A stretch of DNA of 64,000 nt from Escherichia coli (GTDB lineage Bacteria; Pseudomonadota; Gammaproteobacteria; Enterobacterales; Enterobacteriaceae). The stretch lies in assembly GCF_003334315.1 (NCBI RefSeq), contig NZ_QOWR01000017.1, one strand, 5' to 3'. This document shows positions 7,134 to 37,490 of the stretch, in pieces. The notes under the pieces were generated by a model that made no database searches, was not told where the DNA came from, and worked only from the letters and a program-made list of their open reading frames with translations. The position numbers and the translations under genes were made by a program. Positions within the stretch are counted from its first letter, which is position 1; the number at the start of each line of letters is the position of its first letter.

Positions 7134-8087
7134 ATGCGTTTCAGTACACAGATGATGTACCAGCAAAACATGCGTGGTATCACCAATTCTCAGGCAGAAT
7201 GGATGAAGTACGGCGAACAGATGTCGACGGGTAAGCGAGTCGTTAACCCTTCTGACGATCCCATTGCTGCATCACAAGCCGTAGTTCTCTCCCAGGCACA
7301 GGCGCAAAACAGCCAGTACACGCTGGCGCGTACTTTCGCCACTCAAAAAGTGTCACTGGAAGAGAGTGTACTTAGCCAGGTCACCACTGCTATCCAGAAT
7401 GCTCAGGAAAAAATTGTCTACGCCAGCAATGGCACCTTGAGTGACGATGACCGGGCCTCGCTGGCTACGGATATTCAGGGGCTTCGTGACCAGTTGCTGA
7501 ATCTGGCAAACACCACTGACGGTAACGGGCGCTACATTTTTGCCGGTTATAAAACAGAGACTGCGCCGTTTAGCGAAGAGAAAGGGAAATACGTCGGTGG
7601 AGCAGAAAGTATTAAGCAACAGGTCGATGCTTCGCGTTCGATGGTGATAGGACATACGGGTGACAAAATTTTCGACAGTATTACCAGCAACGCAGTAGCG
7701 GAGCCAGACGGTAGCGCTTCTGAAACCAATCTTTTTGCCATGCTGGATAGCGCCATCGCAGCCCTGAAAACGCCGGTCGCGGATAGCGAAGCGGATAAAG
7801 AAACCGCCGCTGCGGCGTTAGATAAAACCAACCGCGGACTGAAAAACTCGCTGAACAATGTCCTGACCGTTCGCGCGGAATTAGGCACGCAGCTGAACGA
7901 ACTGGAGTCGCTGGATTCATTAGGTAGCGATCGCGCTTTAGGGCAAACGCAGCAGATGAGCGATCTGGTTGATGTGGACTGGAATGCAACTATTTCATCT
8001 TACATCATGCAGCAAACGGCATTGCAGGCATCGTATAAAGCATTTACCGATATGCAGGGATTGTCGCTCTTCCAGCTCAACAAATAA
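7134..8087 (+). CDS. flgL: Flagellar hook-associated protein 3 FlgL
   Basis: 317-aa ORF, recognised sequence. Confidence 0.95.
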   Translation: MRFSTQMMYQQNMRGITNSQAEWMKYGEQMSTGKRVVNPSDDPIAASQAVVLSQAQAQNSQYTLARTFATQKVSLEESVLSQVTTAIQNAQEKIVYASNGTLSDDDRASLATDIQGLRDQLLNLANTTDGNGRYIFAGYKTETAPFSEEKGKYVGGAESIKQQVDASRSMVIGHTGDKIFDSITSNAVAEPDGSASETNLFAMLDSAIAALKTPVADSEADKETAAAALDKTNRGLKNSLNNVLTVRAELGTQLNELESLDSLGSDRALGQTQQMSDLVDVDWNATISSYIMQQTALQASYKAFTDMQGLSLFQLNK

Positions 8088-8232
8088 GCTCGCTTTAAAA
8101 CATATCATGAAACTGGGTATGTTTTGTCTGCCTGCTCTGGGATCGCCGGGGCGGGCATTTTTTTGCCTATTTTGCATTGTTGGTTAGCAAGGATGCCATT
8201 CGATGAATTTTAATATGTTGATTCAAAGATGA

Positions 8233-8282: not shown

Positions 8283-11200
8283 TTACTCAACAGGTTGCGG
8301 ACGCGCAGGAGCGGCAGAGGCATGATGTGTTGCCGTATGACCACCTGCGGCACCTTTACCTTCGAAGGCAAAAGTAGGGCGCTGCCAGTCACTGTGACGC
8401 GGTGCCTCCGGAACATATTCCGGTGCTGGAGCGCGCGTCATTGGCGCGGTAGCGTGGTTATGCTCAACGGTGACCTCAGGTTCGACCGCAGCTACCGTTT
8501 CAACTTCTGCTGCGACTTCAGCGACTACTGGCGCGGCAGGTTGAGCAACAACTTCAGGTTCAGCAACTACAACCTCAGCAGTTTCGACAACTTCTTCAAT
8601 ATCTGCCGTCTCTTCCTGCGGTTCAACCACCGGTTCTGCTTGTTCTGCAACTTCCTGGGCTACGGCAACATCAGACTCGGTAATCACCTGCGGCTGTTCA
8701 GTTACCGCGGCAGCGATCACTTCAGGATGCGTCGTTTCAACCACTTCCGGTTGCGGTTCGGCAACCTGAACGGGGGCTTCTACGACACCGGCCACTTCTT
8801 CAACAACTGGCGCGCTAACAACCGGTTCGATAGCGGCGGCGACAGGGACCTCAGTCACCATCGGCTGCACATGTACTTCTTCCTGTTCGCGCTGCTCTTC
8901 AACCTGTACATCTTGCGGACGTACAATTGGATAGCGGATCCAGACTTTGCCAGAGGCCAGTTCCGGAGACGCGCACGCTACGGTCAACGGCATTGGCGAC
9001 TGGGTTGGATAACGCTCGTCACGATAGCGACGACGACGCTGACCACTTACGCGCAGGTGACGAGGCGAGCGGCGAGAACGACGCGGCATGCCACCGTTGT
9101 CACGGTTATCAGCATTGTTCTCTTCTTGCTGTTCTGGTGCAGTTTGCGCTACGACTGGCAGCGGGACTTTCACCAGTTCTGTGCGTGGAGCTGGCGCTTC
9201 CTGAACAATTGGTTCGGCAGCGATAGTTTCTTCAACCACCGGTGCGACTACCGCTTCTTCGGCTACGCTTTGCTCGTAACGCACTTTCTGATTGAGCTGA
9301 CGCTGTTTACGACGCGGCTGAACCGGACGTACACGTTCTTCCTGTTCGGTTTCCTGAACAGATTGCTCTTCAACATTCAGCGCCTTCGCTTCTTGTTGCG
9401 CCTGACGTTTATCATCATTACGGCGGCGGCTACGTTCACGACGCGGCGCTTGCTGCTCGTCGGCGGTACGCGCTTTTTCCGTTACCTCAGCCTGCTGACG
9501 GCTCTCACGCGTCTCGGCAGTCTGCTGCTGTGCCTGGCGACGATTACGACGGTTTTCTTCGCGATTATCGCTGCCTTCAGTACGTTCACTACGGGTGTCG
9601 CGGCGCTCATTACGGTCACGGCGGTTGTTCTGACGAGGCTTGCGACGATCCTGTTGACGTTCCGGTTTCGCTTCTGCTTTCGGTGCTGGTTGCTCGGTCG
9701 GTTTGGTTTCTTCACCACCGCTGAACAGCGCTTTCAGTGCGCCGAAGAAGCGGCTCAACAGCCCAGGTTGTGCAGGAGCTGCTGGTGTTGCCGGTGCAGC
9801 TTTCGGTGCTGGAGCTACAACAGGCGCGGCAGGTTCAGCTGGCGTTGGCGCAGGCGGCACATCCGGCATGGCAAAGGTTGCCAGCGCAGGTTGTTCCGGA
9901 CGCTTACGTTCAGCGAACTCTTCTTCAGACGGCAGCGCCATCGCTTCTTCATGCAGCTTCGGCAGCATGTAGCTTAAGGTTGGGGTTTCTTCCCCTTTAC
10001 GCACGCGCAGCACGTGGTAGTGCGGGGTTTCCATCTGATCGTTTGGCACAATTACACAGCGCACACCGTCCTGACGAGTTTCAATGGCATTTACCGCAGA
10101 ACGTTTTTCATTCAGCAGGTAAGAAGCGATTGGCACAGGAACAATGGCGTGAACTTCCTGGGTGTTCTCTTTCAGCGCTTCTTCTTCGATCAGACGCAGA
10201 ATAGAGAGCGACAGCGATTCGTTGTCACGCACGGTGCCAGTACCAGAACAACGCGGACAAACGTGATGACTGGATTCACCCAGTGATGGGCTCAGGCGCT
10301 GACGGGACATTTCCAGCAGGCCAAAGCGAGAAATATGGCTGATTTGAATACGCGCACGGTCCTGACGCACCGCTTCACGCAGACGGTTTTCTACCGCACG
10401 CTGGTGGCGTACTGGCGTCATGTCGATGAAGTCGATAACAATCAGGCCGCCGAGGTCACGCAGGCGCAGCTGACGAGCAATCTCATCGGCAGCTTCGAGG
10501 TTAGTGTTAAACGCGGTTTCTTCGATATCGCCGCCGCGGGTCGCGCGTGCGGAGTTGATGTCGATGGCCGTTAACGCTTCGGTGCTGTCGATAACAATGG
10601 AACCACCAGACGGCAGACGAACTTCACGCTGGAAGGCGGACTCGATCTGTGACTCGATCTGGTAGTGGCTGAACAGCGGGATCTCGCCGGTGTACAGTTT
10701 GATTTTGCTGCTGAAATCCGGGCGACCTAATGCAGCGATATGCTGACGTGCCAGTTCGAGCACTTTCGGGTTATCGATAAGGATTTCGCCGATGTCCTGA
10801 CGTAAGTAATCGCGGAATGCGCGAACGATTACGTTGCTCTCCTGATGAATCAGGAACGGGGCCGGGCGGCTTTCAGCGGCTTTTTTGATGGCTTCCCAGT
10901 GTTTCAGACGGAAGCTTAAATCCCATTGCAGCGCCTCAGCAGATTTGCCGACGCCAGCGGTGCGCACGATAAGCCCCATGCCTTCCGGCAGTTCAAGGCT
11001 TGCCAGTGCTTCTTTTAATTCGGTACGGTCGTCGCCTTCGATACGGCGAGAAATGCCACCCGCGCGCGGGTTGTTCGGCATCAGAACCAGATAGCTACCC
11101 GCCAGACTGATAAAGGTGGTTAATGCCGCGCCTTTGTTGCCGCGCTCTTCTTTATCGATCTGAACAATGACTTCCTGACCTTCACGCAACACATCTTTAA

Positions 11201-11468
11201 TGTTGGGACGACCATGAGCACTGTAGTTAGCAGGGAAATATTCGCGGGCAATTTCTTTTAGTGGGAGGAAACCGTGACGTTCAGCGCCGTAATCAACAAA
11301 AGCAGCTTCCAGACTCGGTTCAATGCGGGTGATTTTACCTTTGTAGATGTTTGCCTTTTTCTGCTCGTGCCCTGGACTTTCGATATCCAGGTCATACAGA
11401 CGCTGCCCATCTACAAGGGCAACGCGCAACTCTTCCTGCTGAGTTGCGTTGATTAACATTCTTTTCAT
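8283..11468 (-). CDS. rne: Ribonuclease E (N-terminal catalytic half plus Arg/Pro/acidic-rich degradosome scaffold)
   Basis: 1061-aa ORF; N-terminus [31 protein letters not shown]...; low-complexity C-terminal half. Confidence 0.97.
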
Positions 11469-11830
11469 CGTAACTTACTCATTATTCTTACATTGACGAC
11501 TAAGCTGCGGGCAAAGTAACGCCTTTCCGGGTGTGAACCGATGGCCTCGTGTCTAGTCGCGTCGCCAACCTCACGGTTATCGTCAGCTCAAAGAGGCGCA
11601 GAGTGTCGGTTGCCCGTTTTTCATGCGGAAAAACAGCGCAATTATCAAAGAAACAGACTGGGTATTACTCTCCAGAAATATTTCCATCTACCGGTAAGGA
11701 CTGCAACCCGCAGCCCGCTAACTGCCTGAAAGATCAATACGTCTTACGCCATTGCTGCGTGGATGATCGGTCGGGCAAAATGGGTTATTCCGTAAAATTT
11801 CTTGTTTTAACAAGGATGGACACGGAAACG
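11469..11830 (-). promoter_or_regulatory. rne 5' untranslated leader (autoregulatory, structured); extent approximate
   Basis: 572-bp non-coding gap upstream of rne; established knowledge that rne has a ~360-nt leader mediating feedback by RNase E; boundaries not determined from sequence. Confidence 0.55.
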
Positions 11831-12040
11831 GCCTCATTATTCCACTGCAAGCCTTGTTATAGCAAGATGACTTTTACCATTTATCACCCGCTTACTCACA
11901 GTTTTTTCACTTCTTGCTGGTGATTGGTTTAATAACCATCAATAAAGTGATCACGCAGTGAAGTAATAAGGTGCAAAAGTAAATATAAGCATAGAAAAAT
12001 GAGTGGCGCGAATCCTGTTGGCTAATTAGAATCGCCAACC

Positions 12041-36530: not shown

Positions 36531-37490
36531 TTACAGAGTTTGTGGGCTCACTTGATGACGGCGGACATCCACCGGCATCCCGGAACGGACATCCATCACA
36601 TGTTGCATCACTTCAGCGTCAGTTTGTGCTGCATCTTTAAATGATTGCATTGCGCTATTCAGCGTAATTGGCAGCAGCTGCGGATCGTCATCAATCTTCT
36701 CTGACAGCGGCTGATGTACTTCAACCAGACGCGCACCGTTTGGTTCGGCAGAGACTTTTATCGGAGTGTTGATGATATTCACTTTGGTGCCTGGGGTGAC
36801 CTGGCTAAAGAGTGTTTTGATATCGTCATCCCGCAGACGAATACAGCCAGAACTTACCCGCATGCCAATGCCAAAATCGGCGTTCGTACCATGAAGCAAA
36901 TAAACGCCGCCATAGGCCGCCAGACGAATCGCATGATGGCCCATTGGGTTATCCGGTCCAGCCGGCACTACCGCAGGCAACTCAATTCCCTGTGCTTTAT
37001 AACGGGCGCGGATGTTTGCCGTTGGCGTCCAGGTTGGGTTTGCACGTTTGTCTGAAACGGTGGTCACCATTGTCGGTGTCAGCGTGTCACCACCTAACTG
37101 ACCAATACCTATTGGATACACGGTTACCGAATTTTTACCCGGCGGGTAGTAATAGAGACGCAGCTCCGCAATGTTGATCACAATGCCTTCGCGCGGCGCG
37201 TCTGGAAGTAGGGTTTGCAACGGGATCGTTAACACGCTGCCCGCGCGCGGTACGTAAGGATCAACGCCGGGGTTAGCCTGTAACAGAGCGAGAAAGCCGA
37301 CGTTATATTTTTTGGCGATGGCTTCCAGAGAACCACCGTCATTTTCCACCACATGAAATTTGTTTTCGCCAACCAGACGACTGCCCGCTGGCGGCAGCGG
37401 CCAGGTGTTGGCTTTTGCCGGTAGCGCCAGCGCCACGGCAGCGGCGAACGTAAAAAACGTTAGCCAGCGAGAAAAACGCGTTTTGATCAT
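36531..37490 (-). CDS. ldtC: L,D-transpeptidase LdtC (YcfS)
   Basis: ORF 36531..37496; signal peptide, LysM and YkuD domain with catalytic Cys (SSGCIRL). Confidence 0.92.
   Translation of the reverse strand: MIKTRFSRWLTFFTFAAAVALALPAKANTWPLPPAGSRLVGENKFHVVENDGGSLEAIAKKYNVGFLALLQANPGVDPYVPRAGSVLTIPLQTLLPDAPREGIVINIAELRLYYYPPGKNSVTVYPIGIGQLGGDTLTPTMVTTVSDKRANPTWTPTANIRARYKAQGIELPAVVPAGPDNPMGHHAIRLAAYGGVYLLHGTNADFGIGMRVSSGCIRLRDDDIKTLFSQVTPGTKVNIINTPIKVSAEPNGARLVEVHQPLSEKIDDDPQLLPITLNSAMQSFKDAAQTDAEVMQHVMDVRSGMPVDVRRHQVSPQTL

Follow-up and report, generated by a model that had tools for sequence, protein, structure and literature searches.

The gap between rne and rluC of Escherichia coli as the cis-regulatory region of rne, with the antisense open reading frame yceQ as a very probable by-product

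The leader of rne, the gene encoding RNase E, is a textbook case of post-transcriptional autoregulation. One of its stem-loops, hp2, is reportedly the site bound by RNase E, as Diwa (2000) and Schuck (2009) are said to have described. Binding of RNase E to hp2 speeds the decay of its own mRNA and thereby gives a constant level of the enzyme (Jain and Belasco, 1995; Diwa, 2000; Schuck, 2009). A paper that gives the length of the rne 5' UTR as 361 nt cites the RNase E-dependent feedback via the leader as experimentally established in E. coli (PMC10989929). The element is represented in Rfam as RF00040 (rne5), from E. coli and other Enterobacterales. On the opposite strand lies yceQ (b1085), which both the Keio and the PEC collections list as essential and which the literature has reclassified as non-coding and non-essential (10.1101/038851; 10.1101/237842; 10.1101/308916; PMC10249474). 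The features psrO, upstream of pnp, and sroG, upstream of ribB, likewise seem essential since their disruption blocks the expression of the neighbouring gene (10.1101/308916); however, they are RNA features on the strand of the essential gene, whereas yceQ is a protein ORF and lies on the other strand. Both the rne leader and the spurious antisense yceQ are already known, and doubts about yceQ have appeared in print.

The window analyzed here is a stretch of 64,000 nucleotides of E. coli DNA, and its coordinates equal those of K-12 MG1655 minus 1,132,899. The ATG of rne is at 11468..11466 on the minus strand and that of rluC at 12041 on the plus strand. Recomputed from both start codons, the gap between them spans 11469..12040, in agreement with the 572 bp given by the first-pass annotation. 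The leader takes 361 bp of it, and the remaining 211 bp are promoter and upstream DNA common to the rluC side. Many RefSeq E. coli chromosomes match 11300..12200 with 100% identity; this region was found in all 5426 complete E. coli genomes, in 5398 of them with at least 99% identity. At the rne-rluC gap, 13 of the 5426 genomes gave no contiguous match over at least 80% of the query. Just past the rne stop, on the opposite strand, the K-12 annotation places the small RNA FlgO (b4826) at approximately 8087..8164 (plus), at the 3' end of flgL. The features of the locus are the following:

8283..11468, minus strand: coding sequence of rne (RNase E, 1061 aa), to which the leader belongs (ORF list; named rne in E. 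coli RefSeq genomes)
11469..11829, minus strand: rne 5' UTR leader, 361 nt, from promoter P1 (promoter-like site, published length and alignment of 31 species)
11469..11501, minus strand: 3' end of the leader, including the rne ribosome-binding region (conservation)
11493..11829, minus strand: hit to the Rfam family RF00040 (rne5, RNase E 5' UTR element) over all 333 model positions
11502..11716, minus strand: hp3, a branched domain closed by a long-range 11-bp helix (Rfam alignment)
11722..11778, minus strand: hp2 stem-loop, the published RNase E sensor (Rfam structure line and single-sequence fold)
11549..11923, plus strand: shadow ORF with GTG start and 124 codons (ORF list), noncoding according to the comparative evidence
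11865..11836, minus strand: putative rne promoter P1, sigma-70-like, with TTGCTA (-35), an 18-nt spacer and a TG-extended AATAAT (-10) (consensus scan)
11880..11901, no strand assigned: double DnaA box tTTATCACCCgcTTACTCACAg, 15-36 nt upstream of the P1 -35 hexamer (read from the sequence)
11924..12040, no strand assigned: distal gap (conservation profile)
12041..13000, plus strand: rluC coding sequence, the divergent neighbour (ORF list and E. coli annotation)

The search with Rfam covariance models gave a match to rne5 of 260.1 bits (gathering score 180, E 3.4e-82), which ends 24 nt before the rne ATG (11468) on the rne strand. The predicted transcription start, near 11829, is 361 nt before this ATG, a distance equal to the published leader length. 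The long autoregulatory rne leader that the gap had been proposed to carry is thus supported by a full-length rne5 match, by the position of the promoter and by the covariation described below. The leader of the window is the same element as RF00040 by its coverage of the full model, its strand, its 361-nt length, the hp2 core and the covarying helices, and nothing of note differs between them. When this single sequence was folded, hp1 (approximately 11788..11827), hp2 (approximately 11722..11778) and the branched hp3 (approximately 11502..11716) were obtained. The fold is no more stable than that of shuffled sequence (z = -0.66), and the support for the leader structure is homology and covariation, not thermodynamics. 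Both the hp2 core GCAAUGGCGUAAGACGU, at 11739..11755, and GCAATGGCGTAAGACGT of hp2 are invariant in the 31 aligned species, an observation that is partly circular because the loci were fetched with a 16-nt pattern inside this core. The sequence GAGUAAGUUAC, directly before the rne ATG, is nearly invariant in the 31 species, and the 3' end of the leader (11469..11501) has a mean column conservation of 0.97 among 30 Enterobacteriaceae. A match to mir-316 at 11890..11968 was also returned by Rfam and was rejected as noise (20 bits against a threshold of 80 bits, E 0.53).

For the locus collection, a 16-nt segment of hp2 was scanned against a single genome of each species, which yielded 120 loci; a divergent rne/rluC pair with a gap of 550-700 bp was present in 91 of them. 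Matches of the 16 nt in contigs from outside the Enterobacterales (Sphingobacteriales, Sulfitobacter and others) were without rne and rluC and were set aside. Upstream of rne, Rfam detected rne5 in 10 of the 10 other Enterobacterales genera examined, which ranged from E. albertii to Photorhabdus and Moellerella. The leaders of 31 Enterobacterales species aligned over their whole length, and RNAalifold gave a consensus of 56 pairs, with standard pairing in 97.5% of the cells of these pairs. Compensatory changes were found in 17 of the 56 pairs; shuffles gave 7.7 ± 1.5, with none of 500 reaching 17, and a control in which the partners were slid gave 4-7. In the hp2 stems (helices 1-2) each pair had compensatory changes in 2-14 sequences, while helix 4 and the inner helices of hp3 were 98-100% paired in the 31 species and several of their pairs also showed compensatory changes. 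Conservation in the region tracks the pairing pattern of the minus-strand RNA.

In several genera the leader carries an insertion of 121-128 nt at one shared point in the variable hairpin of hp3. The carriers are the loci L037, L074 and L113 (Citrobacter), L078 and L075, and the point lies opposite window positions of about 11685..11688 (about nt 143 of the leader). The Citrobacter insertions match 30-34 of 44 positions of what we take to be the ERIC/IRU core consensus. At the same spot, a different insert of 108 nt was found in Kluyvera (L030 and L110). Evidently, the rne leader tolerates a mobile palindromic element in the hp3 hairpin.

Regarding the promoter, the P1 site has 9 of 12 consensus matches and is the sole promoter-like site in 11300..12200, where 1.5 would be expected by chance. 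Its two hexamers lie within blocks that are invariant across 30 Enterobacteriaceae. The consensus match alone being weak, position and invariance are what point to this site as the probable P1. Earlier studies have located the rne promoter within yceQ (10.1101/038851; 10.1101/237842). On the plus strand, no promoter-like site was found in 11300..12200. The double DnaA box has a mean conservation of 0.89 in the Enterobacteriaceae, and a DnaA ChIP-seq peak with a double-box motif has been reported at K-12 position 1,144,772, which corresponds to 11873 of the window (PMC11317965); DnaA may therefore influence the transcription of rne. Two natural insertions upstream of P1 are tolerated in complete genomes: an IS1 in E. 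coli M217 (L122), at 11982..11990, and an ISEc11 in E. coli O121 (L123), at 11904..11906, which enters the yceQ frame at codon 119 and removes its last five codons.

The ORF list contains the 124-aa plus-strand ORF at 11549..11923 exactly as the first-pass annotation had described it. The mention made there that similar ORFs had been annotated at this place as yceQ was also right: yceQ of K-12 MG1655 (b1085, "DUF2655 domain-containing protein YceQ", 106 aa) maps to 11603..11923, inside this ORF and from a later in-frame GTG, so that both are the same ORF and the 124-aa version starts at the upstream in-frame GTG. The description of the ORF as antisense to the leader holds for 281 of its 375 nt; the last 94 nt extend past the leader over P1 and the DnaA double box. 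The stop codon lies in unconserved sequence. Likewise, the statement that the ORF has no convincing ribosome-binding site stands for the GTG at 11549, which nothing resembling a Shine-Dalgarno sequence precedes, but not for the GTG at 11603, which has AAGAGG (11591..11596) 6 nt before it. This motif, which would favor a real gene, falls within GAGGCGCA (11593..11600), the complement of UGCGCCUC of the leader, which is invariant in 30 Enterobacteriaceae.

The length of the frame could also be taken as a sign of coding, since dinucleotide shuffling of the gap gave an ORF of at least 124 aa in only 28 of 2000 cases (1.4%). This length is mildly unusual, and it would be expected if stops cannot easily arise in nearly invariant DNA. 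Moreover, the window contains 58 shadow ORFs of at least 100 aa overlapping longer ORFs. With that number and a shuffle rate of 1.4%, an open frame of such size is weak evidence of a gene. The longest shadow ORF, of 560 aa, is at 8295..9977 (plus), antisense to the rne coding sequence. By codon log-likelihood the yceQ ORF came last, at -0.25 bits per codon, among the 60 non-overlapped ORFs of at least 100 aa in the window, which averaged +0.32; the 58 shadow ORFs also scored higher on average (-0.11). Its product gave no match in Pfam-A even at E ≤ 10 and none in NCBIfam at E ≤ 1, and the name DUF2655 survives only in source annotations. PGAP called no gene at the ORF among the 20 E. coli genomes listed, and the K-12 RefSeq entry still carries yceQ as a protein.

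The frame is intact in E. coli and E. albertii only. In Citrobacter, whose leader DNA is 91-94% identical, the frame is disrupted by 1-nt insertions, by an insertion of 125-126 nt or by a stop at codon 101. Several 1-nt indels break it in Enterobacter, Lelliottia, Kosakonia, Kluyvera, Superficieibacter, Shimwellia and genera further away, and in nearly all of these genera beyond Citrobacter the aligned frame stops within 4-59 codons. This disruption, from Citrobacter outward, occurs despite a leader identity of 80-93%. Two indel-free Citrobacter sequences, both with the stop at codon 101, gave dN/dS values of 0.99 and 0.84, and their substitutions by codon position ([17,8,12] and [15,11,14]) showed no third-position excess. 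By contrast, the flanking segments of rne and rluC from the same genomes gave dN/dS values of 0.005-0.04, with 80-95% of the changes at third positions. In the ORF, "dS" amounted to about 0.10-0.12, while the flanking rne and rluC had values of 0.6-1.0. Synonymous and non-synonymous sites of the ORF are thus under equal and strong constraint, which indicates selection on the nucleotides and not on the frame. The comparison of synonymous and non-synonymous changes across Enterobacteriaceae, proposed when the ORF was first doubted, consequently revealed no purifying selection on it: dN/dS is 0.84-0.99 and the frame is broken outside Escherichia.

Variation was also seen closer to home. Between E. 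coli and E. albertii the ORF has 3 non-synonymous substitutions and 1 synonymous one, and two GTDB representatives labelled E. coli lack the stop, so that their frame reaches 127 aa. Protein clusters resembling the ORF product numbered 32 among 5.8 billion; the named hits were all from Enterobacteriaceae, with lengths of 68-156 aa and query coverages of 28-98%. These proteins have in common a core of 28 residues that results from translating hp2 and the base of hp3 in antisense. Several of the E. coli and Shigella entries are either frame-shifted or changed at the C-terminus; some frame-shifted variants labelled "E. coli" and "Shigella" (P0009 and P0016) may be assembly errors and were given little weight.

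Published experiments also bear on the ORF. Ribosome profiling, which had been put forward as a check for any product, is available from Price et al., who found no YceQ reads in three conditions, an absence that applies to the conditions examined (10.1101/038851). The same study reported disrupted copies of yceQ in some strains and transposons in yceQ solely where their outward promoter is oriented so that it can drive rne (10.1101/038851). A TraDIS study by Goodall et al. came to the same view of yceQ (10.1101/237842), and the strand-specific effect of CRISPRi on yceQ was explained by blocked rne transcription (10.1101/308916). A genome-reduced strain with a stop at codon 8 of yceQ was viable (PMC10249474). 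Finally, the synonymous recoding of three yceQ serine codons was rejected during genome replacement, the non-recodable codons being at positions 37,213, 37,227 and 37,251 of the fragment (PMC7614783). Such a rejection is expected if the RNA or DNA sequence, and not the protein, is the functional object. The spacing of these positions, 14 and 24 nt, fits no single codon-position convention, so they are not assignable to specific TCG or TCA codons.

Taken together, these data lead us to consider, with high confidence, that the gap is the cis-regulatory region of rne and that the yceQ ORF is a spurious by-product with no functional protein. P1 (11865..11836) would start a transcript near 11829, read on the minus strand, whose first 361 nt would contain the conserved domains hp1, hp2 and hp3 followed by the ribosome-binding region. 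RNase E would bind hp2 and hasten the decay of the rne mRNA, in line with established knowledge, holding the enzyme level constant. The rest of the gap would comprise the double box bound by DnaA and the upstream DNA common to rluC. Under this reading, selection on the leader RNA and the promoter nearly freezes the DNA under the ORF, which is why the frame has stayed open in E. coli and E. albertii; the apparent amino-acid conservation of YceQ comes from translating the invariant hp2 and hp3 sequence in antisense; and yceQ appeared "essential" in the deletion collections because the rne promoter and leader were lost. The points against it are the ORF length in the top 1.4% of shuffles, the Shine-Dalgarno-like AAGAGG at a good spacing, the protein listing in K-12 and the leader z value of -0.66. 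The initial opinion that the ORF is unlikely to be a real gene is therefore upheld by the missing profile match, the worst codon score, the broken frame, a dN/dS near 1 and the lack of published ribosome-profiling reads.

It was also considered that the plus strand could give an untranslated antisense RNA against the rne leader, forming an "excludon" and modulating the rne mRNA via RNase III cleavage or transcriptional interference. The pair rne-yceQ was indeed among 16 divergent excludons that ExcludonFinder detected in half or more of 58 MG1655 RNA-seq samples (PMC12288877). However, this entry may have arisen simply because the rne 5' UTR extends across the annotated yceQ, and it was not counted as plus-strand RNA. 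Such a transcript is also at odds with the result of the plus-strand promoter scan, and the tolerated rne-driving transposons inside the region would disrupt it. As conservation follows the pairing of the minus-strand RNA, we regard this possibility as very unlikely. In a broader form, it is highly improbable that the plus strand of the leader region is expressed in Escherichia at all, be it as a young, condition-specific small protein or as an antisense transcript tuning RNase E autoregulation. The idea that yceQ is a real young protein gene of E. coli and E. albertii only, born de novo antisense to the rne leader and expressed under specific conditions, can draw on the frame being open in both species, on the region being at least 99% identical in nearly all complete E. 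coli genomes, on the AAGAGG before the GTG at 11603 and on the ORF length, but it is extremely improbable given that the near-identity of the DNA is accounted for by the leader and the promoter, that no ribosome-profiling reads were obtained in the three conditions, that the codon-8 nonsense mutant is viable, that 11300..12200 has no plus-strand promoter-like site, that codon usage is the worst in the window, that the substitutions relative to E. albertii are mainly non-synonymous and that the C-terminus and the frame vary within E. coli and Shigella (stop loss to 127 aa, frameshifts and the ISEc11 at codon 119).

Considering the gap as the regulatory region of rne, the practical value of these results concerns annotation and genome engineering, and they bring little new biology. 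K-12 resources continue to carry yceQ both as a protein and as "essential". Treating yceQ as coding has misled both lists of essential genes and codon-recoding designs, in which supposedly synonymous changes strike the rne leader and promoter. The case for retiring yceQ can be made from sequence alone: the frame is broken outside Escherichia, dN/dS is near 1 and the "synonymous" rate is 5-10 times below that of the neighbouring genes.

In the distal gap, the segment 11924..11984 is poorly conserved, and conserved blocks are found at approximately 11985..12012 and 12028..12040. These blocks presumably correspond to the promoter and leader of rluC, to distal rne promoters or to both. An RpoS SELEX peak has been placed at about 11949 of the window (PMC5493296), and a reporter with 555 bp upstream of rne has been described as carrying promoters P1 to P4 (PMC8361080). 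In E. albertii (L008), the gap is 98-99% identical to 11469..12040 of the window throughout, while the synonymous divergence from E. coli in the adjoining codons is 0.27 for rne and 0.64 for rluC. This near-identity means either that the gap is under very strong constraint over its full length, the distal part included, or that recombination took place recently. Just 5' of rluC, the blocks read ATATAAGCATAGAAAAATGAGTGGCGCG ... TTAGAATCGCCAACC, and a possible stem near this gene is formed by TGGCG (12004..12008) pairing with CGCCA (12033..12037).
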